29,802 nucleotides of DNA. Origin: a virus. Where the stretch lies: the IMG/VR virus record IMGVR_UViG_3300045988_171260, one strand, 5' to 3'. Position numbers and translations under genes: made by a program. Shown in pieces: positions 3,034-19,922 of the stretch. A model generated the notes under the pieces. The model was given only the letters and a program-made list of their open reading frames with translations. It ran no database searches and was not told the DNA's origin. Numbering within the stretch: position 1 is the stretch's first letter; every line of letters begins with the position of its first letter.

Positions 3034-3202
3034 ATATTATATACCTCTTCATATTTTATTTTATTTCATTTCAATAGAGAATTACAGTATTAATTCTTAG
3101 TTAATTGTTATTAACTATATAACTTTTTTCTTTTAATATATATATATTATATTATAATTTTATAAAAAAATCAATGAGAAATTATCGGCAAGTAGTTAAA
3201 TA

Positions 3203-3231: not shown

Positions 3232-3265
3232 ATTTAATATAAACAAGAGAAAAGAGGACACGGGA

Positions 3266-3442: not shown

Positions 3443-3946
3443 GTGTAGGTGAGGGTATTTATGGTAACGGTTGAAAATACAGATGGGACTATAGATGTGT
3501 ATGGTAATCTTGGTTGCGTAATCATATAAATATAGAGCGAAACAAAAGAGAAAGAATCGGGGAATTATGTAAATATTTTATTTCTGGAAAAATATGTGGC
3601 GGCAAGGAGAAAATTTTAATAAAAGATATTGATAATAACTATACTAGATGTCTTTCATATGAATCGGAATAAGAAGAGGAGTTTGTTGCGGATGAAGCTG
3701 GATATAAAGATCTTTGAAGTAAGAATTGCCGCATATAAAAAATAGAGGATTTTCTTTGGAGAGAATTTTAAGATAAGAGGATATTATGACGAGAAAAGTT
3801 TAACTGTTTTGTTGAAAGACGAAATTAAATGTCGAAATGTACACTTTTTCAACAAAATTGTTAAAAAAATATGTTTATATTAAAAGGACGAAATTTGTTA
3901 AGTTTCTTCCAAAAATTTTAAAGAAAAGTGAAAGGAGTTTAACAAA

Positions 3947-4561
3947 ATGGAAAATTTAACGAATATAATGTATTTATATCTATTGATTCATCAAGGACAT
4001 TTTGAAAAGGTGAATTATAGTAAGATATCTAAAGAGTTAGGTGTAACTAGACAAACACTATCAAAACAATATAATTCATTACTAGATAATGAAATGATAA
4101 TAAAAGATGATTTTGGTTTTATTAAAGTTAAAGAAGTTTTAGAATTTGATGAAGAAGATTTAGAAATTATTAAAAATAAAATAGTAGAATATCCTTCTTC
4201 TTATATTGGATATTTACTATTAAAAAGAAGATTATTATACGAAACAGATGCTTCTATTTGTAGTATACTAAAGATAAGTGAAAAATTTATTAAGAATTAT
4301 CAACAAAAAATTATTTTTGATAAGAATAATGGAGAAGAAGATGTAGTAAACTATATATATGCTATTGTTTTAAATAAAGAAATAAAGTACGTAGGTTCAA
4401 CAGAAGATTTAATAAACAGGATACAAATTCATTGCAATAAAAGAAAGTTTTTAGCAGAGAATAATTTTATTATTTTAGAAAAATGTTCGAGGAAGAATAG
4501 ATTTGATAGAGAATCTTTTTATAGAAAGTTATTTAATCCAGAATGGAATACAATTATTTAG
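3947..4561 (+). CDS. HTH (winged-helix) protein fused to a GIY-YIG nuclease-like domain (204 aa)
   Basis: GAAAGGAG RBS. N-terminal ISKELGVTRQTLSKQ HTH. C-terminal NYIYAIVLNKEIKYVGSTEDLINRIQIH matches the GIY-(10 aa)-YIG and conserved-Arg spacing of GIY-YIG domains. Confidence 0.7.
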   Translation: MENLTNIMYLYLLIHQGHFEKVNYSKISKELGVTRQTLSKQYNSLLDNEMIIKDDFGFIKVKEVLEFDEEDLEIIKNKIVEYPSSYIGYLLLKRRLLYETDASICSILKISEKFIKNYQQKIIFDKNNGEEDVVNYIYAIVLNKEIKYVGSTEDLINRIQIHCNKRKFLAENNFIILEKCSRKNRFDRESFYRKLFNPEWNTII

Positions 4562-4572
4562 AGGAAGGAAAA

Positions 4573-4932
4573 ATGGAAACTAGAGAAAATCAAAAGGTGG
4601 TTACAACTATGAAAGCTTTACATGACAGTAATAATTTATATTCTCCAGTTAATATTGAAGCAGCAAGTAAAGCAATGTCTTTGTTAAAACCTAATACTTT
4701 TAAAATTTGGTTTTATTTAGGAAAAAACCAAGATCAATATACTTTTGCATTATCTAAAATAGATGTTATGAAATTTTGTAATATATCGCGGTCTACTTAT
4801 TTATCTTCTATAAAGGAATTGATTGATACACATTATCTAGTTCCAGATAAAGATGGCTCTAATCATTATAATTTTTATGAATTTCCTCAAGAAGTAGAAG
4901 ATGATTTGATTATAACAATAAATAAAGGATAA
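4573..4932 (+). CDS. Hypothetical DNA-binding (winged-helix-like) protein, possibly replication-associated. Track start 4543.
   Basis: In-frame ATG at 4573 (METREN...) with GAGGAAGGA RBS. Segment KIWFYLGKNQDQYTFALSKIDVMKFCNISRSTYLSSIKEL resembles an initiator or replisome-organiser wHTH. Functional call is inference. Confidence 0.55.
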   Translation: METRENQKVVTTMKALHDSNNLYSPVNIEAASKAMSLLKPNTFKIWFYLGKNQDQYTFALSKIDVMKFCNISRSTYLSSIKELIDTHYLVPDKDGSNHYNFYEFPQEVEDDLIITINKG

Positions 4933-4942
4933 AATAAAGATA

Positions 4943-4982
4943 GGTATAATTTTAATACCCTTAAGGGTATTAAAATTATACC
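4943..4982. repeat. 40-bp perfect palindrome (ggtataattttaataccctt|aagggtattaaaattatacc). Candidate bidirectional terminator or cruciform.
   Basis: Read directly from the sequence. Lies 11 nt after the stop of 4573..4932, at the point where plus and minus transcription units converge. Confidence 0.8.
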
Positions 4983-4984
4983 TC

Positions 4985-5204
4985 AGTGGTATTAAAATTA
5001 TACCAGAAATAATACATATATTATATTATAAAAGAAGTAATTTCATTACTTCGTATTCAAGCACTTCGTGCTTTCATACTCGTAATGAAATTACTTCTTA
5101 GCCGCCGATAATTTTGTAAAATGTCGAAAAAGTGTAACACAATATAATATAATATAATAGTGGTATTAAAATTATACCAGAAATAATACATATATTATAT
5201 TATA
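4985..5204. repeat. ~46-bp direct repeat, two copies at ~4985-5030 and ~5159-5204. Each contains the hairpin tggtat-taaaat-tatacca followed by an (ATATT)n-like AT-repeat tail.
   Basis: agtggtattaaaattataccagaaataatacatatattatattata occurs twice. The second copy runs into atattatattatattatataataataat. Confidence 0.75.
5032..5099. repeat. 68-bp near-perfect palindrome with 18-bp perfect outer arms (aagaagtaatttcattac ... gtaatgaaattacttctt) and an inner agcacttcgtgct hairpin
   Basis: Read directly from the sequence. Outer arms are exact reverse complements. The centre contains a 5-bp stem with a TTC loop. Confidence 0.75.
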
Positions 5205-5227
5205 TTATATTATATAATAATAATATA

Positions 5228-5262
5228 GGTAATGTATCATACCTTCGGTATGATACATTACC
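5228..5262. repeat. Perfect 16-bp stem hairpin with a TTC(G) loop (ggtaatgtatcatacc-ttc-ggtatgatacattacc)
   Basis: Exact inverted repeat read from the sequence. The loop resembles a UUCG-type stable loop. Confidence 0.8.
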
Positions 5263-5340
5263 TTAGTGTAAATTAAAATGAAGAGTTTTATACGGGGTGG
5301 GGTATTTAGTAGTTGAATCCGCTCTGTTTTAGAGGGACTC

Positions 5341-6108
5341 TTGTTTAATTTTAAAATGTCAAGGAACGTTTTAAAAAATGATTTGAAAATTTTAAGGTTT
5401 AAGTAAATTAGGAAAGTTTTTCGGAAGGCATGAGAAAAAGTAAGAAAAGAAGTATGGTATATTTAGAGAATGGCAAAGAATATTACTGAATAATAACAAA
5501 GAGTTAGAGAGTTTTGTTAAAAACGAGTTATGGTTTTTTGGTTAGAAAAGTGTGGAAGAGGGTATTTAAATTATAAGAGAAGTATGGGAGTGCGGAGTTG
5601 AGTTTAATTAAAGTGCTTCCGCATTTAAAAAGCAAGGTTAAATAAAAATTGCGGGTTACAGAATTACTTAAATAAAATTATTAAAGTTTTGCGTGAGGAG
5701 TTTGATTTTGGAGAGAATTAAGGGTAGCTTTAATAAAATATAAAGATTGGATTAAAGGTGCGTAAGATTAAGATAATAAAATATTTTAGAATTAGAGGGA
5801 ATTGAGGATAGGTTAGCAAAAATAATAAGACTGAGCAAAGAGAATTTAATGTTTGGGTTAAGAGAAAGTATAAGTTAGATTAAGAGAGAAGAAGGTTGAA
5901 GTATATAAAACAATAAGCGGAAGTGAGGATTTTGAGATTGGGTTAAGAGAGGAGTGAGATTAGAGTGAGAGAGCGTAGAATTGGAGTGTAGAGAGGATGA
6001 GAGTGAGGCGTGAGTGGAGAAAGGATAGAGTGAGGCTGAAAAAATGCGAGAAAAAGGTGAAAAAAATTGTGAAAAAAATTGTGAGAGTGAAGTGCTCAGC
6101 CTCACTCT
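5341..6108 (+). other. ORF-free cytosine-depleted, G/A-rich tract (~4% C on the plus strand by hand count; about 43% G and <2% C over 5940-6000). It ends in a long-range inverted repeat with tandem 12-mers.
   Basis: Hand count of C per 60-nt line over 5341-6090 gives ~29 C in 750 nt. No ORF survives in any frame except low-complexity artefacts. Degenerate repeats include gggttaagaga x2 and gagtgag(g) several times. gtgaaaaaaatt occurs twice in tandem (6057-6080). Confidence 0.7.
6024..6108 (-). terminator. Candidate terminator for 6135..6530: 13-bp arms agagtgaggctga/tcagcctcactct around a T-run-rich loop
   Basis: On the minus-strand transcript the stem gagtga/tcactc is followed by acaatttttttcacaattttttt. 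Non-canonical long loop, hence modest confidence. Confidence 0.35.
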
Positions 6109-6134: not shown

Positions 6135-6530
6135 TTATACAAGCCCAGAGAGGATTTTTCTAATAATTTCATCATCTGATAAAGCTTTTTCATTCTCCCG
6201 TTTTACATCTCTTTTTAAATCTGTATCTACTCTTTTAATTCCAAATGATCTTCCCCTTGGAATATCACCCATTTTACCAAAAGCTTCAATAGTCTTTTCC
6301 ATCTTAGTAAACTCTGTCATAAGATTTTTTCTATCCTCAGTAGACTCTTTTTTATCAATAGCTCCAAGAGCAATTCCATACGCTACAAACGCGTCAACCA
6401 ATTTGTTTCTCGCATCTACAATCGCCTTTGTGCGGGTTTCCTTAGTCTGCTCCGCCTCGATTTCAGCTCTTACCGCCTTAAGAATTTCATCTGTTGTTTT
6501 GCCTTCTGCGATCATTCTTTTAATATCCAT
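6135..6530 (-). CDS. Hypothetical protein (131 aa), charged and helical
   Basis: ORF track. GGAGAA RBS. Own promoter at ~6578-6606. No recognisable motif. Confidence 0.65.
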   Translation of the reverse strand: MDIKRMIAEGKTTDEILKAVRAEIEAEQTKETRTKAIVDARNKLVDAFVAYGIALGAIDKKESTEDRKNLMTEFTKMEKTIEAFGKMGDIPRGRSFGIKRVDTDLKRDVKRENEKALSDDEIIRKILSGLV

Positions 6531-6577
6531 AGTATGTTCTCCTTTTGAAATGTTTATTTGTTTTTCTTTATGTATAT

Positions 6578-6606
6578 ATTATATCAAAAAATTATAGAAA
6601 ATTCAA
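6578..6606 (-). promoter_or_regulatory. Sigma-A-type promoter (TTGAAT-17-TGaTATAAT) for 6135..6530
   Basis: Reverse complement reads ttgaat tttctataattttttga tataat; extended -10 TG present. Confidence 0.5.
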
Positions 6607-6853
6607 AGGGGAAGACATCTTTCTAGCTATTGTTGGGCTTAATTAATTTCCAAAAATTTTAAATGAGATAAGGCTCGACGTAAAAATGGAAGGCGGAAAA
6701 TAAAAATGGCTTTTTTTACTATTGTATCATATATTTTGTTAAAAATCAAGCGGAGGGAGGTGAGGTATGCCATAATTGCGGGATTCTAGAGTAGTGATTC
6801 AAAATTCCAAACATCTAGCGAAAAAGCCCATATAGGCGATCTTTGTGGTAGGT

Positions 6854-6913
6854 CGGATCCGAGTCCTTTGAACTCGGACCGCTGATTATATCACAGCCGC
6901 CGCATTTTGTCAA
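6854..6913 (-). promoter_or_regulatory. Consensus promoter (TTGACA-17-TATAAT at 6885-6913) whose transcript begins with a GC-rich hairpin (6854-6881)
   Basis: Reverse complement reads ttgaca aaatgcggcggctgtga tataat cagc, then stem cggtccgagt/actcggatccg. Same promoter-plus-5'-hairpin architecture as at 10667-10695, 10850-10878 and 14239-14267. Confidence 0.55.
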
Positions 6914-7195
6914 TAGGCAAATTATATAAATTTTTCATTATTTTTTTAGTAATATTGCACAAAAAGTCATTTTTACCAAAAATTTCATTAAAAATAGGAT
7001 TTTTTTTGGTAAAAATGACTAAAATAAATAAAAATGTACAAAAAAATAGCCAAAAACCGCGTAATTTTTGGCTATTTTATATAGAATATAGAATTTTATT
7101 GAATTTTTATAAGAAATTTTAGTTATTTTGTATAGAATAGTCAGAAATGTAAATTTTCTGACTATTCTACGTAATTTTTAGTTACCTTGAACTGC

Positions 7196-7591
7196 TTACT
7201 CCTCTACAGCTTCCTCTTCCTCTTTTGCAAGAGAGAAATAAGGAACTCTTTTTTCAACTGTTCTAACTACCTCTCCAGATTCGATAAGCTGTTTAAGAAG
7301 AGCCGATAATTTCTGAGAAGAAAGTTTACTCATTTCAGAGTTTTCCTTAATCATGGTTGAAACTGTAACAGGTTTATCAAATAACTCCAAAGCTACAAGA
7401 ATAAGTTTTTTGACTTCCTCATTTTCTTTCTGGTTTTTGGTTTTTTTACCGCTGGAAGATTTTTTATTCAACAGCTCGATTTCATGTCTGAGAAAGTTAA
7501 GTGCTTCTTCTTTTGGTTCAAAGCTACTTTCTTCCAGAAAAGCACTGATAGTTTCAAACCAATCTTTTTTTGTCATTTTGTCTTTCATCAT
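7196..7591 (-). CDS. Hypothetical protein (~131 aa) with C-terminal winged-helix-like segment. Track start 7597.
   Basis: ORF track. Conserved leader gaggtaATGaatATG. C-terminal VTVSTMIKENSEMSKLSSQKLSALLKQLIESGEVVRTV resembles a wHTH. 13-bp perfect inverted repeat gaatagtcagaaa/tttctgactattc downstream at ~7147-7179. Confidence 0.65.
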   Translation of the reverse strand: MMKDKMTKKDWFETISAFLEESSFEPKEEALNFLRHEIELLNKKSSSGKKTKNQKENEEVKKLILVALELFDKPVTVSTMIKENSEMSKLSSQKLSALLKQLIESGEVVRTVEKRVPYFSLAKEEEEAVEE

Positions 7592-7624
7592 ATTCATTAC
7601 CTCTTTCTTTCTTTTGATATATTT

Positions 7625-7653
7625 ATTATAGCATACTTTTTTGTTTTTGTCAA
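7625..7653 (-). promoter_or_regulatory. Consensus promoter TTGACA-17-TATAAT for 7196..7591, part of a duplicated ~70-bp promoter-leader module
   Basis: Reverse complement reads ttgaca aaaacaaaaaagtatgc tataat aaatatatcaaaagaaagaaagaggtaatg. An identical module recurs at 7880-7947. Confidence 0.65.
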
Positions 7654-7684
7654 TTACTTTTTTTATTTTTTTCTTTTCTGGTGC

Positions 7685-7873
7685 TTATCTAATGTAAGCA
7701 CCAGCAATAGACTTAACAGAGCCATCAGCATTGAAAAAGATAACATTATTCTGGATAACGTTGATACCTTTATTCTTTGCAAAATTTCTGAACACAAAGT
7801 CTGTATTCCAGAGTTTGATAAAATCAGCTTTTCTCATGCTTGCAAAACCTTTTGTGTAATTCATTGTTCTCAT
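7685..7873 (-). CDS. Hypothetical small protein (~62 aa). Track start 7879 (TTG).
   Basis: ORF track. Preceded by an exact copy of the 7604-7670 promoter-leader module. ATG at 7873 has proper GAGG spacing. Confidence 0.55.
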   Translation of the reverse strand: MRTMNYTKGFASMRKADFIKLWNTDFVFRNFAKNKGINVIQNNVIFFNADGSVKSIAGAYIR

Positions 7874-7906
7874 AGACAATACCTCTTTCTTTCTTTTGAT
7901 ATATTT

Positions 7907-7935
7907 ATTATAGCATACTTTTTTGTTTTTGTCAA
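7907..7935 (-). promoter_or_regulatory. Consensus promoter TTGACA-17-TATAAT, second copy of the duplicated module
   Basis: Same sequence as 7625-7653. Confidence 0.65.
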
Positions 7936-7951
7936 TTACTTTTTTTATTTT

Positions 7952-8155
7952 TTAATTTTTTCCAAGATACTCTTCAAGATGCTCGTTTAAGAAATTTATA
8001 GTTTCATCCAACCCGTGAATCTCACAAAAGTTTTTAAAAGCTTTTTCAAGTTCTTTTGCTCTTGTATCTTTTATAACTTTTACGCAAGTGCCATACTCTT
8101 CTTTTGTAATAACAAAAGGAACGCATCCATCTTCTTTCAACGTAAAACTTCTCAT
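7952..8155 (-). CDS. Hypothetical small protein (67 aa)
   Basis: ORF track. RBS aaagggg. A 10-bp stem hairpin (8175-8203) lies immediately upstream of the RBS. Confidence 0.55.
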   Translation of the reverse strand: MRSFTLKEDGCVPFVITKEEYGTCVKVIKDTRAKELEKAFKNFCEIHGLDETINFLNEHLEEYLGKN

Positions 8156-8174
8156 CTTATAGCCCCTTTCTGTC

Positions 8175-8232
8175 CTTGCTACTGCCTACTCAGCAGTAGC
8201 AAGTTTGTTAAACTGTCTAATTTTTATTTTTT
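8175..8232 (+). terminator. Hairpin cttgctactg/cagtagcaag followed by a T-run on the plus strand. Intercistronic hairpin on the minus transcript; possible antisense-transcription terminator.
   Basis: 10-bp stem read from the sequence. Followed by tttgttaaactgtctaatttttatttttt. Confidence 0.35.
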
Positions 8233-8598
8233 CTTCGGCGGTCTATGTTTGATTAACGAAATTGAGTATTCCGCACCGCCAATTTTAAAAGTAATTTCTT
8301 TTTGCGGATTTGCAATGGTCACATTTTCAAAGTTTATTTCCTCAACTTCTTTCAAGTGATTTGCTAAAATCTCAATGATTTTAACTTTTTCCGCATCTAA
8401 CTTCACCTCACGCTTTTTCGTGCTTTTTTTCTCTGGCGTACTCTGGACATAATTCTTAATGCCTTTAGCCTTAATCTCCATTTCTGCCATTTCAAGAGCT
8501 TCCTCTTTTGTTACGGGTTCTCCATCCGCTTCAAATTCTTTCATAAGCTTAATAGCAAGCTTTTCGATTGCATCTGCGGTCACTGCTGTTTTAGCCAT
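8224..8598 (-). CDS. Hypothetical protein (124 aa), Lys/Glu-rich
   Basis: ORF track. Promoter-leader module with TTGACT-17-TATAAT at ~8618-8690, duplicated at 9413-9478. Confidence 0.6.
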   Translation of the reverse strand: MAKTAVTADAIEKLAIKLMKEFEADGEPVTKEEALEMAEMEIKAKGIKNYVQSTPEKKSTKKREVKLDAEKVKIIEILANHLKEVEEINFENVTIANPQKEITFKIGGAEYSISLIKHRPPKKK

Positions 8599-8671
8599 GT
8601 TACATCACATCCTTTTTAAAATTTACTATTAACTTGTTACAATGGTATTATATCGCACCTTAGTTTAAAAG

Positions 8672-9382
8672 TCAAGCATTTTCGTGTAATTCTTTTCTTT
8701 TTTTCTGCGGTAGTCTCCAACATGACGGCTTAATACTTCTATCCATTTTTTTATGCTGGTCAAAACATTTTTTCATAATTTCAATTTCAATTTTTACATC
8801 TTCTAAACCTGTATGAGATTCTACAAAATCAATATTCTTTTTAATATATTTATAGCATACCTCAGCGTTAGTTAAAAGATTGCCTTTTTCAGACTCAAAT
8901 CCGTTTTTCTCAGCAAATTTGATATAGGTGTTTGTACTTAAAATCATCTGGCAAGCCATATTCCAAATACAAAAATATTCTGTGCCATAAGGGAAAAACC
9001 AGCGAATAAAACTTTTGCTATGGTATCTAATAGCATTGTTTAATGCTTTTCTATCAAAATTCATATTGTAAGCACCAACTTTTTTCACATTATATTCTTT
9101 CATGTCTGCAAACATCTGTTTTCTAATATTGAAGATGCTTTTCATGGTTCTTTTTCCGCTTTTTAAATCATCCCAATATTTTGGGATTTTTTTAGCGTAG
9201 TAGGCACTATTCATAGCTTCTTTCAAGTCAATAAATGTCTCAGCGACTACAAAGCTTCTTTCGGTGACAATGTTACCGTGTCTATCTGCAATAGCATAAC
9301 CAATATCATAAGGGATTGGCTCATTTACACTATTCGCAGTTTCTGTATCCAATACCATGAAAAACTCTTTTCTTCTACTCAT
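8672..9382 (-). CDS. DEDDh (DnaQ-like) 3'-5' exonuclease (~236 aa). Track start 9397 is a TTG.
   Basis: Exo I VLDTETA. Exo II YNMNFDRKAL. Exo III HTGLEDVKIE. ATG at 9382 with GAGGAAA RBS 6 nt upstream. Confidence 0.8.
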   Translation of the reverse strand: MSRRKEFFMVLDTETANSVNEPIPYDIGYAIADRHGNIVTERSFVVAETFIDLKEAMNSAYYAKKIPKYWDDLKSGKRTMKSIFNIRKQMFADMKEYNVKKVGAYNMNFDRKALNNAIRYHSKSFIRWFFPYGTEYFCIWNMACQMILSTNTYIKFAEKNGFESEKGNLLTNAEVCYKYIKKNIDFVESHTGLEDVKIEIEIMKKCFDQHKKMDRSIKPSCWRLPQKKRKELHENA

Positions 9383-9480
9383 TTTTGATTTCCTCAACTT
9401 TCATTTATTTTTTTTACTATTAACTTGTTACAATGGTATTATATCGCACCTTAGCTTAAAAGTCAAGCATTTTCGTTTAT

Positions 9481-9656
9481 TTTTTAAAATCTTTTAACTG
9501 CTGGTTTGTAGACAACTCTTTAATTTTATATTTATGTAATCTGTTGTTTAAACAATAAATGCATGAACCATGGTTTCTGCACTGCATTGATATTGCTTTT
9601 GCTTTGCGGTATTCTTTTCTATGCTCTTTACCACTTTTAATTGCTTTGTCCATCAT
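9481..9656 (-). CDS. Small Cys-containing protein (~58 aa), below the 60-aa ORF-track threshold
   Basis: Hand translation MMDKAIKSGKEHRKEYRKAKAISMQCRNHGSCIYCLNNRLHKYKIKELSTNQQLKDFKK. AGGTGG RBS 6 nt upstream. 18 nt after the stop of 9674..10147, in the same operon. Confidence 0.45.
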
Positions 9657-9673
9657 GTTTAACCACCTACTTT

Positions 9674-10147
9674 CTATAAGAAATTTTTTAATACTTCCAT
9701 GATATTGTTTACATCAAAACTATTTTTGCCCCACTCTTTTCTATTGCGTTCCTCGTCATCAAAAAGCCATCCCTTACAATCAACGACAGTACTTTTTGGT
9801 GTACCATAGTTTACAATTTTGATTTCATCCCATTCAATACTAGGCAAGTGTTTTTCAAGCCATGCAAGTTTTACACTTGTTACCGCCGTATTATAAGAAG
9901 CTGACCCGCTTTTACTTAACCAGCTTACAATACCGATTCTATAGCCATTAGCTTGTAACTTGTGAAGCACTCTTGCGAAAGCTGAAAAATTGAAAAGCGG
10001 TTTTGCTACTTTGTATGGTGTAGTATCTTCTTTTTCCAAATATGCTAACCAGTTTTCCACGCCGTAGAAATTAGCAAGTGTGCCGTCCATGTCAAAATAA
10101 ATAGTTCCCTTTGTGTTCATCATTTCTTTAATTGTATTATTCATCAT
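9674..10147 (-). CDS. HAD-superfamily phosphatase, possibly 5'(3')-deoxyribonucleotidase-like. Track start 10159 is a TTG.
   Basis: N-terminal DxDGT motif IYFDMDGTLANF. Size ~157 aa. ATG ATG at 10147/10144 with GGGAAGG RBS. Product specificity is inference. Confidence 0.65.
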   Translation of the reverse strand: MMNNTIKEMMNTKGTIYFDMDGTLANFYGVENWLAYLEKEDTTPYKVAKPLFNFSAFARVLHKLQANGYRIGIVSWLSKSGSASYNTAVTSVKLAWLEKHLPSIEWDEIKIVNYGTPKSTVVDCKGWLFDDEERNRKEWGKNSFDVNNIMEVLKNFL

Positions 10148-10591
10148 AATATCTACCAATCCTTCCCTTTTTGATTATCGCAAGTGCTTTGCGATTGACC
10201 GACCAATGATTATGTGAACCTTGCTTTGTTTCTGTTTTTTAAGTTTAATGTCCTTCGACAAGTATATATTACTACATCTTAGCGAAAAAGTCAAATTTAT
10301 TTTTTATTGTGCAAAGTGATGAAAATTTTACATAAAAATCATAGTATTTTTGTTAAAATGTACAAATGTAGAAAAATAATGCGGATTTAGGCAGATTTTT
10401 GTGCATTTTGCTATCTTAAATATCACATATTGTGTTTCTGCGTGTCAAAAAAGGTATGATTTTTTATTAAAATTTCGTCACTTTGCACAAGGTGTAGAAA
10501 ATCTTAGCATTATTTTATTAAATTTTGTACATTTTGTACACCATGTCAAAAAATGGGATTTTTTTAATTTATTTTTTGTGCAAATTGCCTA

Positions 10592-10621
10592 TTGACAAAA
10601 AGGTGCTAGATGTGGTATAAT
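10592..10621 (+). promoter_or_regulatory. Consensus promoter TTGACA-18-TGgTATAAT. Transcript starts with the GC hairpin 10627-10648. No downstream plus-strand gene.
   Basis: ttgaca aaaaggtgctagatgtgg tataat. Preceded by a tttgtgcaaattgcc tattgaca upstream element. Confidence 0.6.
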
Positions 10622-10666
10622 AAAATTTCGGGGTGCCCCGACCCCGAACGGAATTCGTCTACCTCC

Positions 10667-10695
10667 ATTATAACACAGCCGAGCCACCTTGTCAA
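10667..10695 (-). promoter_or_regulatory. Consensus promoter TTGACA-17-TGtTATAAT, convergent with the 10592 promoter. Its transcript runs through the same hairpin and then a U-run.
   Basis: Reverse complement reads ttgaca aggtggctcggctgtgt tataat. The predicted ~45-nt RNA ends in stem ttcgggg/ccccgaa plus AUUUUAUUAUA. Confidence 0.55.
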
Positions 10696-10705
10696 GAGTT
10701 TTTTC

Positions 10706-10740
<35 letters not shown>

Positions 10741-10783
10741 AATTTTAGGATAAAAATTTTAAAAAATTTGTGCATTTTTTCTC

Positions 10784-10812
10784 TTGACAAAATGTCTCAA
10801 CTATGTTATAAT
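10784..10812 (+). promoter_or_regulatory. Consensus promoter TTGACA-17-TATAAT. Transcript starts with GC hairpin 10821-10847.
   Basis: ttgaca aaatgtctcaactatgt tataat. Upstream tttgtgcattttttctc element. Confidence 0.6.
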
Positions 10813-10849
10813 GGAAGGCTCGGCTCGCATGGGCTGCTCGCGAGCCGCT

Positions 10850-10878
10850 ATTATAACACATTTTCCGCGACTTGTCAA
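10850..10878 (-). promoter_or_regulatory. Consensus promoter TTGACA-17-TGtTATAAT, convergent with the 10784 promoter across hairpin cggctcgc/gcgagccg
   Basis: Reverse complement reads ttgaca agtcgcggaaaatgtgt tataat agcggctcgcgagcagcccatgcgagccg. Confidence 0.55.
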
Positions 10879-10896
10879 CCCCTTTTAAAAAATTTT

Positions 10897-10972
10897 TTTA
10901 TTTTCGTCATTTTGCATAAAAATAAAATTCAGCATTTTGCACAAATTTTATTTTCGTCATTTTGCATAAAAA
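10897..10972. repeat. 26-bp direct repeat tttattttcgtcattttgcataaaaa, two copies with period 50
   Basis: Copies at 10897-10922 and 10947-10972, read from the sequence. Confidence 0.75.
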
Positions 10973-10998
10973 AACAAAAGCCTAAATTATATAGGCTT
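10966..10998 (-). terminator. Rho-independent terminator ending the 11018-13771 minus-strand gene block
   Basis: Stem aagccta/taggctt (10978-10998) followed on the minus strand by uuguuuuuuua. Confidence 0.6.
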
Positions 10999-11017
10999 TA
11001 TCATTACTCTTATTAAG

Positions 11018-11224
11018 TTATTTAGTATTACATTTACATTTTGCTTCTGTAATAATTTCTGTCTGATTAATTTCTGTATTGCTATTGTTATTAAAAAAAT
11101 GGTCTGAGCCTTTTGCTAAAAAAACTATTATAGTTGCTAGAATCATTCCGATTATAAGAAAACCAATTAGACCATTCAAATCTCTTCTAAATTCTTCATC
11201 TGTTGGGGCTTTTTCTTCTCTCAT
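11018..11224 (-). CDS. Small membrane protein (68 aa, one TM: LIGFLIIGMILATIIVFLA)
   Basis: ORF track. Hydrophobic core. ATG start. Confidence 0.55.
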   Translation of the reverse strand: MREEKAPTDEEFRRDLNGLIGFLIIGMILATIIVFLAKGSDHFFNNNSNTEINQTEIITEAKCKCNTK

Positions 11225-13223: not shown

Positions 13224-13490
13224 CTATCCTATTATCTCTGCATCTGTAATAATATCATCTGTCACATTATTAGTCCCTAAAGAATCCATGTGCAATTTAA
13301 CTTTATCTCTTGCTTTAAAGCCGTCCCCGTAGAAACTCCAGACATGTCCGTAGCTATCCATAACAACCACCTCATTATTAAAAGAGCTAATCACCTTAGC
13401 TTCTCTTGTGTACTTAGTAAAGCTGTCAAAACCGCAAATACTAATTAAAGTTGCACTTACTACTAATCCTAAAATTACCTTTTTCATCAT
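13224..13490 (-). CDS. Secreted small protein with N-terminal signal peptide (~88 aa). Track start 13502 is TTG.
   Basis: MMKKVILGLVVSATLISICG hydrophobic N-terminus. GGAG RBS inside the end of the upstream gene. Hairpin terminator ~13165-13211 downstream. Confidence 0.6.
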   Translation of the reverse strand: MMKKVILGLVVSATLISICGFDSFTKYTREAKVISSFNNEVVVMDSYGHVWSFYGDGFKARDKVKLHMDSLGTNNVTDDIITDAEIIG

Positions 13491-13492
13491 GT

Positions 13493-13771
13493 TTAACTCC
13501 AACCTCTTTCTTTCTTAATCTTTTCGTATCTTTCTTTTGCTTCTTTTTCAATCTTCTTTTTGTCATACATTCTAATTTTCATTCTAGTATATCCGTCTCT
13601 TTTTAAACACCAACGTTCTGTTTTACGTTGTACTACTATTTTATCAATAGCTCTTTGCTGTACCTCTTGCTTATGAGTGTTGTAATATTTGATACTCTCA
13701 ATTTCTAATAAAGTACTTATTGGTCTGTACTTATTGGTTACACTAAACAAAGTGCATTGAATTGTTATCAT
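13493..13771 (-). CDS. Hypothetical basic protein (92 aa)
   Basis: ORF track. GAGAGG RBS. Own consensus promoter at 13800-13828. Confidence 0.6.
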   Translation of the reverse strand: MITIQCTLFSVTNKYRPISTLLEIESIKYYNTHKQEVQQRAIDKIVVQRKTERWCLKRDGYTRMKIRMYDKKKIEKEAKERYEKIKKERGWS

Positions 13772-13799
13772 CTTCTTATCACCTCTCTTTTCAAGTATT

Positions 13800-13828
13800 A
13801 TTATACTACCTTATTATACCATTGTCAA
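13800..13828 (-). promoter_or_regulatory. Consensus promoter TTGACA-17-TATAAT for 13493..13771
   Basis: Reverse complement reads ttgaca atggtataataaggtag tataat. Confidence 0.6.
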
Positions 13829-14238
13829 GCGTTTATTTATAGTATTTTTATTCGTCTTAATGCATATTTATTTATGTATATTTATTCACATTGCTAGTTA
13901 GCTTTACATATTTTATATTTATATCCTTTTATAAATTTTATAAATTAAATTATAAAATAAAATATAATATATCAGTTATTGCATTGTTTTACTTAATATT
14001 TATTTAAGCATATCTTTCTTATTATACTATTATGTTATTCTATTATAACTATTATAAGACAAGAGTCTTACGTTGAATACACTATTATTATTATTGTAAC
14101 ACTTCTATAAAAGTAATTACATAATATAAAATATTATTATACTTATACTTTGTATGTATTGTTATAGTATAATATTATTATACTGTTATTATTATTATTA
14201 TTATTATTATCTTTCCTTTATCTTAAGCTTAATCTCTC

Positions 14239-14267
14239 ATTATAACACCTTTAGCTCATTCTGTCAA
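14239..14267 (-). promoter_or_regulatory. Consensus promoter TTGACA-17-TGtTATAAT firing into the gene-free, extremely AT-rich tract 13830-14230
   Basis: Reverse complement reads ttgaca gaatgagctaaaggtgt tataat. Its -35 is the first copy of the TGTCAATAGACA 12-mer. Confidence 0.5.
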
Positions 14268-14529
14268 TAGACATTTTACACAATTTTTTCTTTTGATTTT
14301 CGTGCAGATTGCCCATTGACATTTCTTGTCTATTGACATTTTGTACAAAAATCAAATTATATTTTTGTATACTTTTACCATTGACAGGACTTGTCAATAG
14401 ACATAATGCACAAAATTTTCCTTGCATTTTTGTGCAATTTTACCTATTGACAAACTCATTTTAGGAAAATATCTTTGTGCATTTTTTACAAAAATTTAGC
14501 CAAAAATTTGTGCATTTTGTCTATTGACA
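14262..14529. repeat. Four copies of the 12-mer TGTCAATAGACA in alternating orientation (14262, 14327 rc, 14392, 14518 rc), interleaved with TTTGTGCA(A/T)TTT and (t/c)attgaca motifs
   Basis: Exact 12-mers read from the sequence. Each carries TGTC-N4-GACA dyad symmetry and a TTGACA hexamer on one strand. Confidence 0.75.
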
Positions 14530-15094
14530 GGCTTCTCGGAGCGTTGCGAAAGTATACGCTCCGATGGTAGATGGTAGATGGCAAGCTACCAATAGCCAAT
14601 AAAATTCTAATCTTCTTGCTTTATTTTAATTATTTAAAGAATTTATTTTATTAGTTTAACTCTTTCTCCTCTTTATTTAAAATAATGTGTTCAAAATCCT
14701 TCTGAACAAAAAACATATCCTCTTTGGAAAATGATTTGAAAAATTATTTGTTAGGCGGTGTTTTGTTGCTTCTTACTCAAAAGAAAAGACCAATCTACAG
14801 ACCATACCCAAACATAATACCCGGGCTATATTAAAGGATTAAAATTTTTTACTTTTATAAAAAGATAGTGTTCTCCACAATTCTCTCTCCAAAAAAATTT
14901 TTAAATCTAAAAATTGAAGAAAATGAAGAAGAAAAAATTGAAATAATTCTCCTTCCAAAAATTTTAGAATCTAAGAATCTAAAATAAAAACTTTAAGGAT
15001 TCTAAATATTAAAAAATTTTCTTCTTCTTCTTCTTTAAAAAATGCGTGAGTGTCAAGTTAATCTCCGAAATACGTTTAAAAGCTTAGTAATCAT

Positions 15095-15319
15095 CTAAAA
15101 CATCGCGTTTGCCTGTTCATAATATTTTAATTCTTGAATCCAAGCGATTGGAATTACCATTTCCGCTTTAGCGTATCTTTCTATAGCATCCATGATTTCA
15201 TGTCTCCTAGTATTGATTATTTCTAATCTAAAAGTTTCACGCGGAACCAATCCTGCAACTGCAACTGCAACTGTTTTCTTTGCTTTCCCTGTTTCGTTAT
15301 TCATAGTCATATTACTCAT
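15095..15319 (-). CDS. Hypothetical small protein (74 aa)
   Basis: ORF track. GGAGGAAAA RBS. Follows 15332..15676 by 12 nt in the same operon. Confidence 0.5.
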   Translation of the reverse strand: MSNMTMNNETGKAKKTVAVAVAGLVPRETFRLEIINTRRHEIMDAIERYAKAEMVIPIAWIQELKYYEQANAMF

Positions 15320-15331
15320 ATTATTTTCCTC

Positions 15332-15676
15332 CTATTTTACTATTTTAATTACTTTACCATGTTTTCCGCTCATTTTCATTTTCATAATAATCTTTCTAAT
15401 TATTGCGTCTTTTCCATCATAAAAAAGTATAGCAAAATCAATATTATCTACCATTTTCTGAATTAATTTATCTATATTGCGATCAAATATATATTCAATA
15501 GGAGCACCATTATTTTCTGCCCATATTTTTCCAATAGACTCCGAGAGCTTCTTCTCCGTATTCCCGCAAACAACAGTAAACAAGTAACACTGCGTTTCAC
15601 AGATAAAATCTTCCATAGCTGCGGAGACTAGGCGATTATCCGCGAAACCGCGACTTCCAAGAATACTAATTCTCAT
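15332..15676 (-). CDS. SLOG/DUF2493-like Rossmann-fold protein (114 aa)
   Basis: N-terminal ISILGSRGF glycine-rich loop and overall size are typical of phage DUF2493 / YspA-like SLOG domains. Assignment from memory of the family, not a search. Confidence 0.45.
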   Translation of the reverse strand: MRISILGSRGFADNRLVSAAMEDFICETQCYLFTVVCGNTEKKLSESIGKIWAENNGAPIEYIFDRNIDKLIQKMVDNIDFAILFYDGKDAIIRKIIMKMKMSGKHGKVIKIVK

Positions 15677-15757
15677 CTCTTTTTCCTCTTGTTTTATTTA
15701 TAAAATAATTATAACAAAAATTTTTTAAAAAATCCAATTAAAGTGCTTTAATCAAAT

Positions 15758-15786
15758 TTGACAAAAAAATTTTTTTGTGGTATAAT
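15758..15786 (+). promoter_or_regulatory. Consensus promoter TTGACA-17-TGgTATAAT for the morphogenesis operon
   Basis: ttgaca aaaaaatttttttgtgg tataat. ~25 nt upstream of GAAAGGAG RBS and ATG 15814. Confidence 0.65.
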
Positions 15787-15813
15787 ATAATTGTAAATTA
15801 GAAAGGAGAAATT

Positions 15814-16971
15814 ATGACACCAATAATAATAGAAGATGAAGCTTTTGAGGAGAATATTTTAGAAGAAGAAAAAACAACAGAAAAACAAATCAAAGAAGAA
15901 AATATACAAACTACTATTAAATTAGATTATTCTTTAGAGACTCCTGAAGAGCGGAATGAATTAGTTAAAAAAATTATAAATAATACTCCTTCTGAGCAAT
16001 TAACACCTAGATATTTAGAAATATTGTCAGATTACATTATTTTTGCTATGGATAAACAAGAGCGGAAACAAAAGCAAATATTAACTGATAATCACATGGT
16101 CACAGTTAACAAAAGAGAAACTTCTTTTGAAGGATTAGTTGGTCGCTTAGAGAATGGCGAAGATGGCATTTATAATATGATTGCTAATGATAAGAATATT
16201 ATCTTTACACCTAAATTTCAAATAACTCAACAAGATATTGCGGAAATCCCCGAGTTAAAACAACTTGTAGACGCGATTGCGGAAGTTGAAAAAGCTGAGA
16301 AAAAAGCAGTTGGTAAAAAGAAATTTTTATTAAAAAAGCAACTTATTGCTATGAGACAAGATCAATATGTAATTAGAAGTGCATATAAGCCGCCAATTTA
16401 TTGTATGAACGCAATTAAAAGTTTTAGCAAAATTGATTTTGATGAAAATGTTTCTATTAGCGGAGATGATGAAATTGAAGATAATAGCTTAGTTTCTTTT
16501 TTTAATCCTAAGCACGTATCTGCGTTATTATGTAACTATTCCCGCCTAAAAGAAGATGCATGGGGAAAATTCTATAGTGATTCATACTTTTTAATGGAAG
16601 ATTTAGATACATTAATAGAAAAGACTTTAAGAGACAGCTATCCAATGTATTATGACCTCTTGATTTATAAAATAGATGGAAAACAAAATCTTGAAATTCA
16701 AAGCCTATTGAATCAAAAGCATAATGTAAAACATTCAGTGGAATATATATCATCTTTGTGGCGGAATAAGATACCTAAGCTATTGTCAGAGCAAGCTCAG
16801 GAAGACTACTTAATTTGGTATTATACGACTCAGAAGAAGGGAAAATGGAAAAAATGTTCCCGCTGTGGGGAAATCAAATTAGCTCATAATAAATTTTTTT
16901 CAAAGAATAAGACAAGCAAAGATCATTTTTACAGTATATGTAAATGTTGTCGAAATAAGAAAAATAAGTAA
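15814..16971 (+). CDS. Hypothetical protein (385 aa), acidic N-terminus, C-terminal zinc ribbon
   Basis: ORF track. CSRCGE...CKCC at the C-terminus. First gene of the structural operon. Confidence 0.7.
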   Translation: MTPIIIEDEAFEENILEEEKTTEKQIKEENIQTTIKLDYSLETPEERNELVKKIINNTPSEQLTPRYLEILSDYIIFAMDKQERKQKQILTDNHMVTVNKRETSFEGLVGRLENGEDGIYNMIANDKNIIFTPKFQITQQDIAEIPELKQLVDAIAEVEKAEKKAVGKKKFLLKKQLIAMRQDQYVIRSAYKPPIYCMNAIKSFSKIDFDENVSISGDDEIEDNSLVSFFNPKHVSALLCNYSRLKEDAWGKFYSDSYFLMEDLDTLIEKTLRDSYPMYYDLLIYKIDGKQNLEIQSLLNQKHNVKHSVEYISSLWRNKIPKLLSEQAQEDYLIWYYTTQKKGKWKKCSRCGEIKLAHNKFFSKNKTSKDHFYSICKCCRNKKNK

Positions 16972-16983: not shown

Positions 16984-18183
16984 ATGAATTATACTTGCAA
17001 CAAATGCGGAAAATCAATGGATGAAATAAATTTTTATACATATAAAAATGGTAAAAAAACAGAATTATGTAAAAAATGTTTAACTATGCATATAAATAAT
17101 TTTGAACCTAATACTTTCCTATGGGCATTAGAAAAGATGGATGTTCCATATGTTCCAGAAGAATGGAATATTTTAAGGGATAAAGCCTATGCAAAAGATC
17201 CTTATAAAATGAATGGGATGTCAGTATTTGGAAAATATCTTTCTAAAATGCGGCTAAAACAGTGGAAAAATTATAGTTGGGCAGATACAGAAAAGATTGC
17301 TCAAGAAAAAGAAAAAAAGACTCAAGAGGATCTCGAACAACAGAAAAAATTTGAAGAGAGTATGAAGCAACAGCTTGAAAAAGGGGAAATTTCTGAAGCT
17401 GAATACAAAACAATGGTTTCTACCCCTACTCAGAACGCGGAATTGGCGGTAAAAGCTCCTAAGAACGAGATTGGAACTGACAATTTTTATGATGAAAATA
17501 ATTTTATAAGCGAGGATGAATTAATTGATCCCGCCGCGGAATTAACTCAAGAAGATAAGATTTACTTAGCTATGAAATGGGGACGTTTATACAAACCAAA
17601 TGAGTGGGTTGAATTAGAGAAAAAATATGAAGAGATGACTAGTTCTTTTGATATTCAAGATTCAGATACTACAGGAACTTTAATTCTTATTTGTAAAACC
17701 TATTTAAAGATGAATCAGGCGATCGATTGCGGTGACATGGATGGATACCAGAAATTATCCAGAGTATACGATTCATTGCGTAAATCCGCAAAATTTACAG
17801 CCGCACAAAATAAAGAAGTAAAAAGTGATTTTGTAGACTGTATTGGAGAGATGGTTGCCTATTGTGAAAAAAATGGCGGTCAGATTCCAAGAATGAAGAT
17901 AGAGGCTCCAAATGATATAGTAGATAAGGTTATCATGGATTTAAAAGAGTATACGAGATCATTGATTTATGATGATAAATCCCTTGCTCAACAGATAGAA
18001 AATTATATTAAGCAGAGAGAAAATGCGGATGCGATGAAGAAAGATAGAGAAGAAGCTAAAGAAAAAGGCTATAATCAAATAGAATTAAAAGATAGAGATT
18101 ATCAAACTTATTTTGATAATATTGCAAAAGAAAAAGAAAATGATGAAAAAATTTATATAGGAGAGGATGAAGATTTTATATGA
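16984..18183 (+). CDS. Hypothetical protein (399 aa) with N-terminal zinc ribbon; possible DNA-recognition/terminase small-subunit role by position only
   Basis: CNKCGK...CKKC at the N-terminus. Stop overlaps the TerL start (ATGA). No recognisable TerS motif, so the TerS call is positional inference. Confidence 0.7.
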   Translation: MNYTCNKCGKSMDEINFYTYKNGKKTELCKKCLTMHINNFEPNTFLWALEKMDVPYVPEEWNILRDKAYAKDPYKMNGMSVFGKYLSKMRLKQWKNYSWADTEKIAQEKEKKTQEDLEQQKKFEESMKQQLEKGEISEAEYKTMVSTPTQNAELAVKAPKNEIGTDNFYDENNFISEDELIDPAAELTQEDKIYLAMKWGRLYKPNEWVELEKKYEEMTSSFDIQDSDTTGTLILICKTYLKMNQAIDCGDMDGYQKLSRVYDSLRKSAKFTAAQNKEVKSDFVDCIGEMVAYCEKNGGQIPRMKIEAPNDIVDKVIMDLKEYTRSLIYDDKSLAQQIENYIKQRENADAMKKDREEAKEKGYNQIELKDRDYQTYFDNIAKEKENDEKIYIGEDEDFI

Positions 18184-19922
18184 GTTTAAAAGGTTTATTA
18201 GATTTATCTGAATCTAGAACTCTTAAGAAGCAGGGTATGTCAGAAGAAAGACTGAAAGCTCAACTTCCTCATTTAAGAAAACTAATCGCTTATTATAGAG
18301 AATATCCAGATCTTTTGGTAGACTTTATGAAAGGTCCTGAGAGTACTTTTAAATTCTTTTTTTACCAGAGAATATTCTTAAGAATTACAATGCGGCATAG
18401 ATATGTGTATGCCACTTTTCCACGTGCGTATAGTAAATCATTCTTATCTATGATGATTCTTATGTTAAGATGTATTCTCTATCCTAACTCACATTTATTT
18501 GTTACTACTGGCGGGAAAGAACAAGCTGCTAGTATTACCATAGCAAAGATTGAAGAAATATGTAAGCTCATTCCCGCCCTTAATAATGAATTAGATTGGT
18601 CAAGAGGAGCTTCTAAGAAATCAAAAGACGATGTTAATTATATCTTTAAAAATGATTCTTCTATTAATATATTAGCTGCGAAACAATCTTCTAGAGGCCA
18701 GCGTAGGACAGGTGGTTTAATGGAAGAATGTGTTCTTATAGACGGAGATATATTAAATGAAATAATAATTCCTACGACAAATGTTGATAGATTATTACCA
18801 GATGGAACTAGACATAAAGAAGAAATAATTAATAAAAGTCAAATATATATTACAACAGCTGGGTGGAAGAATTCATTTGCATATGATAAACTGATGGAGC
18901 TTTTGGTTCAGTCAATGATTGAACCTGATAAAGTTATGATTATGGGTGGAACCTATGAAACGCCTGTTGCAGAAGGTCTTTTGGATGAAGATTTTGTAGA
19001 GCAACTCAAATTACAAGGCACATTTAAAGAAGATTCTTTTGATAGGGAATATCGTTCTAAATGGAGCGGAGATGCAGAAAATGCATTTTATTCTTCTGAA
19101 AAGTTTGATAGGTATAGAGTGTTATCCCAACCAGAATACGAATATAGCGGAAGAAGTAGTAAATCAGCTTATTATGTTATAGGGGTGGACGTCGGACGTA
19201 TAGGCTGTACAACTGAAGCTTGTATATTCAAAGTTACCCCTCAACCGCAAGGAGCAGCTTTAAAGAGTTTGGTTAATATCTATACTTATGAAGCAGAGCA
19301 TTTTGAAACTCAGGCAATCAATTTAAAGAAATTATATTATAAGTACAAAGCTAAAATTATTTCGATTGATGCAAATGGCTTGGGTATTGGACTCATCGAC
19401 TTCATGACAAGGGCACAGATTGACCCTGAAACAGGGGATACCCTTCCGCCGTTTGGAGTTGAAGGAGGAACATCAGAAGATGCTATTGCTCCTTATAGAA
19501 AAATTAAGGGCGGAGATGTGGAAGATAATGCTTTATATTTAATTAAAGCAAATGCACCAATTAATACTGAAGCTTATTCATATACTCAGACTCAAATGTC
19601 TAGCGGAAAAATTAAATTTTTGAAAGATGAGTCTGAAGCTAAAGCTAAGCTAATGTCATCAAAAGTTGGTCAGAATATGGATGCAGATAAAAGAAATGAA
19701 TATTTAAAACCTTTTGTTTTAACAACGATTTTAAGAGAACAAATGCTAAATCTAGTTGAAGAAAATGAAGGAGTTAATATTATTTTAAAACAATCTTCAA
19801 GAGGTATAAAAAAGGATAAGTTTTCTGCTTTTATATATGGACTGTACTATATAAAACAGGAAGAAGACCATAAGAAAAAGAGACGAAGTAGAAATATATC
19901 AGATTTTATGTTCTTTAGCTAA
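18180..19922 (+). CDS. terL: Terminase large subunit (580 aa)
   Basis: Deviant Walker A FPRAYSKSF. Acidic ATPase motifs. C-terminal RNase H-like nuclease start YYVIGVDVGRIG. Position upstream of the portal gene. Confidence 0.88.
   Translation: MSLKGLLDLSESRTLKKQGMSEERLKAQLPHLRKLIAYYREYPDLLVDFMKGPESTFKFFFYQRIFLRITMRHRYVYATFPRAYSKSFLSMMILMLRCILYPNSHLFVTTGGKEQAASITIAKIEEICKLIPALNNELDWSRGASKKSKDDVNYIFKNDSSINILAAKQSSRGQRRTGGLMEECVLIDGDILNEIIIPTTNVDRLLPDGTRHKEEIINKSQIYITTAGWKNSFAYDKLMELLVQSMIEPDKVMIMGGTYETPVAEGLLDEDFVEQLKLQGTFKEDSFDREYRSKWSGDAENAFYSSEKFDRYRVLSQPEYEYSGRSSKSAYYVIGVDVGRIGCTTEACIFKVTPQPQGAALKSLVNIYTYEAEHFETQAINLKKLYYKYKAKIISIDANGLGIGLIDFMTRAQIDPETGDTLPPFGVEGGTSEDAIAPYRKIKGGDVEDNALYLIKANAPINTEAYSYTQTQMSSGKIKFLKDESEAKAKLMSSKVGQNMDADKRNEYLKPFVLTTILREQMLNLVEENEGVNIILKQSSRGIKKDKFSAFIYGLYYIKQEEDHKKKRRSRNISDFMFFS

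Follow-up and report, generated by a model that had tools for sequence, protein, structure and literature searches.

An array of repeated modules in a gene-free island

The window, that is, the whole analysed stretch of 29,802 nts (IMG/VR virus record IMGVR_UViG_3300045988_171260), carries at 13772-15094 a 1.3-kb gene-free island in which a short element, made of an upstream box and a -35 hexamer within a 23-bp composite, is repeated in both orientations. With its YonF-type terminase, YonG_N protein and YpsA/SLOG gene the window is SPβ-like; it comes from a large siphophage of this kind with a low-GC host, and its own GC content is 29.9%. Coding strands are leftward to the left of 15677 and rightward from 15814. 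An earlier reading made without database searches (the sequence-only reading) had transcription diverging between 13.8 and 15.8 kb, with the block 13830-14600 at that point. The switch exists but lies at 15677-15813; the block is therefore not at the divergence point and belongs, with the whole island, to the leftward arm. It is flanked by small open reading frames (ORFs) without assignment, a SLOG-like gene and a sigma-like gene. Related loci, designated by L numbers, were gathered by means of the sigma-like protein, the exact composite motif and the 92-amino-acid (aa) protein encoded next to the island. Coordinates are collected in Table 1.

Table 1. Features of the gene-free island and its surroundings, and LexA boxes of related loci
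Feature	Position	Strand	Remarks
Consensus sigma-A promoter TTGACA-17-TATAAT	13800..13828	-	12/12; Shine-Dalgarno sequence (SD) and ATG within 30 nt
AT-rich low-complexity gene-free tract	13829..14238		16% GC (0.157-0.163); between two tandem leftward promoters
(TTA)8 microsatellite	14186..14209		right edge of the AT insertion
Ancestral early leftward promoter	14239..14267	-	TTGACA-17-TGTTATAAT; 12/12 plus TG
Homotypic array	14262..14530	both	~7 box/-35 modules, ~3.5 tandem 65-bp units
Array boxes	14299, 14340, 14364, 14407(-), 14429, 14474, 14507		14299, TTCGTGCA (TTTGTGCA in relatives); 14340, TTTGTACAAA; 14364, TTTGTATA; the last four, TTTGTGCA
Array TTGACA hexamers	14316, 14333, 14381, 14447, 14524
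Candidate weak rightward promoter	14447..14475	+	TTGACA-17-TATCTT, box at N10; 10/12
Terminal full composite TTTGTGCATTTTGTCTATTGACA	14507..14529	+	without -10; abuts the GC hairpin
Stem-loop 1 CTCGGAGCG...CGCTCCGAG	14536-14564		z = -5.0
Stem-loop 2 GGTAG...CTACC	14565-14591		adjoins stem-loop 1
AT-rich spacer, non-coding	14592..14802		25% GC; after the hairpin in all lineages, sequence kept only in the close lineage
~110-bp element ACCCGGG...TTTYGGGAAAA...TTCYCTCTCCAAA	14803..14912		beyond the coordinates of the sequence-only reading, same block
Second, degenerate TTCTCCTTCCAAA copy	14947-14959		66 bp further on
Promoter of the sigma-like gene	15758-15786		host-type, 12/12, TG-extended
LexA boxes	L004:583; L018:3009; L041:8927 and 11734; L044:8736 and 11538; L023:6566

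The 12-mer TGTCAATAGACA occurs exactly at 14262(+), 14327(-), 14392(+) and 14518(-), in the alternating orientation described by the sequence-only reading, and copies with one mismatch were found at 6908 and 10586. At ≤1 mismatch the window thus holds six copies for 0.22 expected, a number reached in 0/100 shuffles. The TTTGTGCA box is present in 10 copies for 1.17 expected, all of them confined to three gene-free islands at ~6.9, 10.4-10.9 and 14.4-14.5 kb, with none in the late arm of the window. Both motifs, like the other features described, are real and non-random. A recurrence of the box motif had been proposed as well and is real, although three of its positions (14440, 10585 and 10781) had to be corrected to 14429, 10575 and 10767. 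The first three 12-mers are 65 bp apart and the units that they mark share 62-80% identity.

We searched the island for sigma-A promoters (TTGACA, 16-18 nt, TATAAT). Complete promoters were found at 14267..14239 and 13828..13800 and a weak one at 14447-14475, while the other four or five array modules have none. The first, a consensus promoter that had been predicted to fire into the gene-free AT tract, indeed does so by its position; it carries a degenerate upstream box ATTGTGTA at 14277-14284, the N9 position, and its orthologue in L041/L044 lies immediately before the 92-aa gene. In the window, the promoter directly upstream of this gene (13493-13771) is the one at 13828. The module at 14447-14475, the only other one in the array with a usable -10, is invariant in sequence in 3/4 close relatives.

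The box and the -35 hexamer form a phased composite

Alignment of all sites across loci gave aaTTGCACAAA-N~14-TTTGTGCAA-tT-TGtCtATTGACA. Its core is the 23-bp composite TTTGTGCAA-N2-TGTCTATTGACA, found across SPβ-like phage contigs, and the full consensus reads TTGCACAAA-N14-TTTGTGCAA-N2-TGTCTATTGACA, with or without N17-TGnTATAAT. The 12-mer corresponds to the right half of the composite (-41..-30, including the -35 hexamer) and TTTGTGCA to its -52..-45 half. Box cores are exact across sites and spacers variable. The exact 23-bp composite was retrieved from 17 further stretches of large viral contigs, and L014, whose sigma-like protein is 48% identical, has 17 TTTGTGCA copies in 10 kb of early region. 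Many promoter regions of the phage genome carry this one element, as in a global operator set. A literature search with the motifs returned only unrelated primer sequences.

A strong sigma-A promoter follows the box at 27% of 62 sites (ten non-redundant loci), compared to 3% of random positions. The gap between box and -35 is quantised, with 9-10 nt at eight sites, 19-20 nt at eight and 39 nt at one, whereas controls were flat. These steps of one or two helical turns point to a protein site that faces RNA polymerase from one side of the helix. The comparison showed that complete composites have the make-up of strong promoters, in which the box is fixed to one helical face relative to the sigma-A -35/-10.

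All loci together contain 87 unique box-N9/10-TTGAC sites, 44 with a proper -10 and 43 without. Among the former, a GC hairpin never lies within 25 nt of TTGACA (0 sites) and starts 26-45 nt downstream, at the transcription start, in 21. Among the latter, it lies within 25 nt in 18 and most of the others sit in arrays. No alternative conserved -10 motif was found among the 87 sites (at most 0.74 bit per column), and a different sigma factor is therefore not indicated. The sigma-like protein of 15814-16971 was considered as reader of the motif and rejected: it is also present in box-less lineages, the box-TTGACA spacing is wrong for a -35/-10 pair and an alternative -10 is lacking. Loci without the box are L008, L009, L012, L022 and L023.

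A probable cluster of operators heading the early operon

We favour, with slightly better than even confidence, that 14239-14530 is a dense cluster of one clade-specific promoter-type cis-element which heads the leftward early operon and provides operators for a putative regulator. The sequence-only reading had suggested a promoter class, a shared operator or a switch. Clade-wide conservation and helical phasing bear out the cis-element, while the factor and the role as 'master switch' stay at the level of supposition. A sequence-specific, probably phage-encoded protein would bind both the box and, overlapping the -35, the TGTC-N4-GACA dyad. As the promoters concerned already match the consensus, we favour a repressor or a global regulator, acting by occlusion or tethering of RNA polymerase; that it represses rather than activates is a guess. 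The array would confer cooperative, high-occupancy control on the 14267 promoter and possibly also on the weak rightward 14447 promoter. The AT tract has no conserved part in this, and the hairpin after the last module is a conserved structural boundary element, for which an insulator, a terminator of leftward read-through or a DNA cruciform site are candidate roles.

The syntenic 92-aa protein co-occurs with the box. Beside the arrays of three other lineages we found perfect LexA boxes (Cheo, Gram-positive) of the form CGAAC-N4-GTTCG (Table 1); the window has none, even at two mismatches. Such boxes would fit control regions of SOS-responsive, probably temperate, phages.

Several points weigh against an operator cluster. 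No binding protein was identified, and the confident model of the 92-aa protein has no DNA-binding fold. The sigma-like protein occurs in box-less lineages too and lacks a sequence-level sigma signature. Most array modules have no -10 and so are not promoters themselves. Lastly, a protein-site array with a hairpin and an AT-rich stretch also resembles origins, centromeres and packaging (pac) sites.

The closest known system is that of SPβ, in which a repeated element of 15 bp (SPBRE) is bound at about ten promoters by MrpR (YopR), the master repressor keeping lytic genes silent (PMC10516654). As in the window, a short element recurs in promoter regions between the genes of an SPβ-type phage, the border of the late cluster among them. 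The sequences are nevertheless unrelated, and neither TTTGTGCA nor the 12-mer was found in the 25 kb of SPβ that were checked. The window element differs further in being a 23-bp composite that includes the -35, in its N9/N19/N39 phasing, in its -10-less arrays and in its coupling to GC hairpins. A search of the window, rather than of complete genomes of the clade, found no MrpR homologue, as judged by the absence of any tyrosine-recombinase-fold protein. For control of the array, the C1 operators of P1 may serve as an analogue together with SPBRE/MrpR. SPβ-type phages are models of lysis-lysogeny control (arbitrium, MrpR/SPBRE) and their uncultured gut relatives are unstudied; the clade-wide, phase-locked element provides, as a 23-mer, a handle toward the early-transcription regulator in phages of ~135 kb.

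Hairpin, spacer and 110-bp element: a packaging site?

The GC hairpin described at 14536-14564 by the sequence-only reading folds well (stem-loop 1, Table 1). The GATGGTA direct repeats reported with it are present (2.7 copies at 14563-14581) but are not kept by close relatives. The order 'last module then hairpin' recurs in L041/L044, L004, L037, L018, L014/L015 and L017, and a hairpin was kept in 8/8 instances tested (seven loci), with GC stems of 9-11 bp, unrelated sequences and z from -1.9 to -7.6. Without a U-run, these stems are not canonical intrinsic terminators and would at best be weak ones. The whole island is laid out in one order in the window lineage, in L041/L044, in L004, in L037 and in L017/L010: leftward promoter, box array, last box usually with TTGACA, GC hairpin, 100-150 bp of AT-rich DNA and the ~110-bp element.

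The 110-bp element can be aligned across five lineages in which the flanking protein is 44-68% identical, and its TTCTCTCTCCAAA motif occurs in the window only within this block. A conserved RNA structure was sought and rejected (RNAalifold -2.5 and -1.4 kcal/mol on the two strands, no covariation). Conserved in sequence without an RNA fold, the element is therefore regarded as a one-per-genome DNA site, unlike the multi-locus box; pac, ori and leader roles are candidates. Small ORFs in 14600-14960 were likewise discarded, as relatives differ there non-synonymously or in length, leaving mini-ORFs of 7-34 codons. On the minus strand of 14803-14960, such mini-ORFs start at a conserved GGAGAGGGAAATG.

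These features can be read as a pac/cos site, in which hairpin(s), AT-rich spacer and the 110-bp element with its TTCTCTCTCCAAA repeats would be the recognition or cleavage site of the terminase and the array merely the adjacent promoter region. We consider this unlikely. The YonG-like gene (16984) and the YonF-like terminase gene (18180) lie 1.9 kb and 3.1 kb downstream of the block, whose position is thereby analogous to that of the genome opening point of SPβ. This point maps to the intergenic region (yonR-yonP) between the early genes and the late cluster holding yonG and yonF; in both phages a long gene-free region separates early genes from the late/terminase cluster. The single, sequence-conserved 110-bp element, which is not an RNA structure, and the positionally conserved hairpin also speak for such a site. 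However, no significant similarity to the SPβ pac region and no evidence of ends was found. Moreover, the block does not immediately head the late operon, since two to six leftward genes (two in the window) intervene, and long independent contigs break at differing distances from it, which fits circular permutation or arbitrary assembly breaks. The proposal also concerns 14536-14960 and not the features on which the sequence-only reading was built. Two leads were abandoned: a by-eye resemblance to SPβ yonR-yonP (GGGGGTATATTT / CATTTCC...CCAAATT) failed local alignment with shuffles (z ≤4.3, AT-rich low-complexity only), and contig breakpoints, taken as a guide to fixed genome ends, were inconsistent. 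Should the island serve as pac or origin, the hairpin and the 110-bp element would suit that role better than the 12-mer array.

Conservation of the array

The tandem make-up of the array could also mean evolutionary debris, i.e. duplicated and partly decayed copies of the promoter-hairpin cassettes that are intact in the two other islands with boxes (islands A and B, see below) and in many relatives, without collective function beyond the live 14267 promoter. The 65-bp tandem units with 62-80% identity between them would agree with this, as would the lack of a -10 in most modules and the variation of module number and arrangement between lineages. Conservation argues in the opposite direction. 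Among close relatives the array is 91-95% identical, as are the flanking genes (92-94%), while the AT tract has drifted to ~70%. Comparable -10-less arrays were found in L017, L028, L036, L037, L041 and L014, and each genome has two syntenic places for them: the first close to the genes for the 92-aa and sigma-like proteins, the second close to a deoxyribonucleotidase gene and corresponding to island B of the window. They are kept at these positions in lineages with 48-68% protein identity, and box cores remain exact while spacers vary. We hold decay to be a quite unlikely explanation of the array.

The AT-rich tract and the question of an origin

The sequence-only reading described 13830-14230 as nearly devoid of G and C. 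The stretch has 15.7% GC, and the lowest-GC 300 bp of the whole window (13.3%) lie inside the tract; no ORF with coding support was found there. The repeat said to end it, (ATT)8 at ~14197-14220, is real, but the perfect (TTA)8 is ~10 nt further left (Table 1). The tract is present only in the window and L001/L002/L007/L031, with 68-71% identity and many indels, and its microsatellite varies in copy number among L001/L002/L007. It is missing at this position in L041, L044, L037, L004 and L017. L041/L044, with 65-68% identity in the 92-aa protein, have their parts in the order of the window but lack the tract. There, the window 14267 promoter aligns with its counterpart through TTGACA...TAAAGGTGTTATAAT...TAAGATAAAGGAAAG; past this point L041/L044 run into GGAGAATAAAGCTAATG, which provides the 92-aa gene with its SD and start codon, and the window into (ATA)n and the AT tract. 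The microsatellite begins exactly at the site of the ancestral SD/ATG of L041/L044.

On these alignments, the AT tract is best described as a recent, lineage-specific and fast-evolving insertion into the leader of the 14267 promoter. The 13828 promoter would have arrived with the insertion or arisen in it, and now presumably serves the 92-aa gene. Given the drift of the tract and its absence from relatives with the same array, the locus does not include a conserved unwinding element.

This bears on the origin architecture that the sequence-only reading had seen here, iterons next to an AT-rich unwinding element, which failed most of the tests run: the repeats are pieces of promoter modules and the tract is a lineage insertion. 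Iteron origins such as lambda ori and SPP1 oriL/oriR have direct repeats that occur only at the origin, within the initiator gene or next to it. The window resembles them in having clustered repeated sites beside AT-rich DNA. Its repeats, in contrast, alternate in orientation and are parts of promoters at many sites, genome-wide, in dozens of related loci and with two arrays per genome; no initiator, helicase-loader or primase gene is adjacent. A second form of the proposal takes the 14267 transcript as R-loop primer. In T4, a MotA box at -30 replaces the -35, and oriF/oriG are R-loop origins composed of a promoter plus a DNA unwinding element (DUE). Like T4 middle promoters, the composites combine a phage-specific upstream box with a host sigma -10, and, as at oriF/oriG, one promoter of the window fires into an AT-rich gene-free tract. 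In the window, however, the -35 is consensus, the box lies at -48 or -58 and the AT tract is not conserved. The only MotA-like hint was a weak PHROG match of the ORF at 6135-6530 (E = 0.0036).

Clustered protein-type sites on one helical face with a 65-bp period, and a 12/12 promoter reading into a gene-free tract of 16% GC, would suit an origin. In all lineages the hairpin has a shorter AT-rich stretch on its right, so that the case for an unwinding element does not fail altogether. The origins of the SPβ group are unmapped (PMC8270828), so that nothing excludes this locus a priori. Yet relatives with the array lack the 400-bp tract, which is only ~70% identical, with indels, where it does occur; phages of the L041/L044 type already suggest normal replication without it, and the T4-like promoter-plus-DUE form fits the anatomy of the window but not that of its relatives. 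DnaA boxes number 11 for 8 expected, none of them perfect. GC skew, which had been proposed as a check, has its cumulative minimum at ~15.6-15.8 kb, where the coding strand flips, and not at 13830-14600; as it tracks the switch at 15.7 kb, it is uninformative for initiation. We therefore regard an origin at the array as decidedly improbable, and once the AT tract is recognised as a recent insertion, an origin call that was tempting but wrong falls away.

Elsewhere in the window, 4935-5270 is an iteron/hairpin/AT-rich site of a more classical kind, directly downstream of a small ORF (4543-4932) resembling helix-turn-helix proteins (Pfam HTH_36, E = 0.006 only). It contains four 17-bp palindromes GGTAT(W)A(WWW)T(W)ATACC (at 4943, 4966, 4988 and 5162, three of them spaced 22-23 bp), perfect inverted repeats with 18-bp arms (5032-5049/5082-5099) and 17-bp arms (5227-5243/5247-5263), and an (AATAT)n tract. 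Further on, ~690 bp at 5400-6090 have 3.9% C on the + strand and no ORF of ≥50 aa. By its layout, 4935-5270, which no fetched relative covers, is a more classical candidate for an origin or cis site than 13830-14600. The search for origin or pac is thereby shifted to this palindrome/hairpin cluster and to the 110-bp element at 14803-14912.

A centromere-like or architectural nucleoprotein site, for partition of a plasmid-prophage or for genome organisation, is very improbable indeed: inverted and direct repeats of one site overlap promoters at few loci per genome, as in the omega-heptad arrays of pSM19035, which are both operators and parS, but no ParA/ParB-type gene was found in the window or the annotated fetched loci and nothing points to plasmid maintenance.

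Two promoter classes and hairpin cassettes

The left arm contains ~18 near-consensus sigma-A promoters. Ordinary early promoters have an A-rich upstream region without box, and each is followed by an SD and a small gene. On the - strand, the ordinary pairs 7653/7935, 8675/9466 and 11511/12789 are near-identical in upstream region, spacer and leader (for instance '...aaaaaaagtaaTTGACA...TATAATaaatatatcaaaagaaagaaagaggta'), which suggests duplicated promoter-leader cassettes placed before different small early genes.

Box-class promoters (6913-, 10592+, 10695-, 10784+, 10878- and 14267-) are found, within the window, only in the three gene-free islands. Downstream of them are GC hairpins, except that 14267 is followed by the AT tract. 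In relatives, a complete box-class promoter typically has a GC hairpin after it, then an A-rich linker and in some cases a terminator, with stems that differ between copies. The units are multi-copy within a genome, with three in 4 kb of L029. The order hairpin-linker-terminator matches the layout of a short RNA gene. Occasionally, as in L034/L035/L038, a box-class promoter drives a protein gene. In the hairpin units (island A, 6800-6965; L024-L037), loops often read a(a/g)GG(a/t)(c/t)CGT and an inverted second module often flanks the unit. No Rfam match was obtained for the units, which may represent an undescribed family of phage small RNAs or cassettes.

In island B (10560-10900), 12/12 sigma-A promoters form face-to-face pairs, 10592+/10695- and 10784+/10878-, with predicted starts ~25-34 nt apart and a GC hairpin inside each pair. 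An A27 homopolymer (10708-10734) separates one of these promoters from its upstream box. Transcripts predicted from these pairs would be very short, with complementary 5′ ends. Closely spaced opposed promoters controlled by a multi-site regulator on one DNA face are known from coliphage 186 (pR/pL) and phi29 (p4). Unlike in those phages, the opposed promoters of island B flank only a GC hairpin and not genes, and the array is mostly without -10.

As a tentative possibility, to which we give clearly less credit than to the operator cluster itself, these parts could be linked into one system. The 23-bp box/-35 composite would define a promoter class for short GC-hairpin RNAs (~40-80 nt) instead of proteins, and the -10-less arrays would act as a sink or switch for the factor. 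The hairpin RNAs would be multi-copy and often come from face-to-face pairs, with the 14262-14530 array, at the head of the early operon, as control node. The element marks a promoter class that appears to make short hairpin RNAs and not proteins; if the whole reading is true, this would be a phage-wide palindromic promoter-hairpin cassette system without described counterpart.

Neighbouring genes and other observations

The terminase (18180-19922) is of the YonF type, with relatives in Enterococcus EF1/VRE9, Geobacillus E3, Brevibacillus Sundance and Bacillus SPβ-group phages, and the YonG_N domain of the gene preceding it was seen in its homologues. The sigma-like gene (15814-16971) opens the rightward late/packaging cluster. 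It owes the name 'sigma factor' to its membership of PHROG 5767, and no Pfam, NCBIfam or PDB-sequence match supports that name. It holds the place taken in SPβ by yonP/yonO (phage RNA polymerase).

Rfam gave no gathering-level match over the whole window and only chance-level ones in E-value scans of 13400-15900 and 6500-11100; a tRNA/tmRNA scan found nothing. An attempt to name the host through bins of metagenome-assembled genomes was given up, with only three bins of conflicting taxonomy (best, Erysipelotrichaceae).

At 3000-4932, a block of + strand ORFs with strongly positive GC skew interrupts the leftward arm. One of these ORFs (3947-4561) encodes a GIY-YIG endonuclease that carries a Myb-like DNA-binding domain at its N terminus, and the block has the look of a homing or mobile module that was inserted. 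In L041, a GIY-YIG gene sits between the sigma-like and YonG-like genes.

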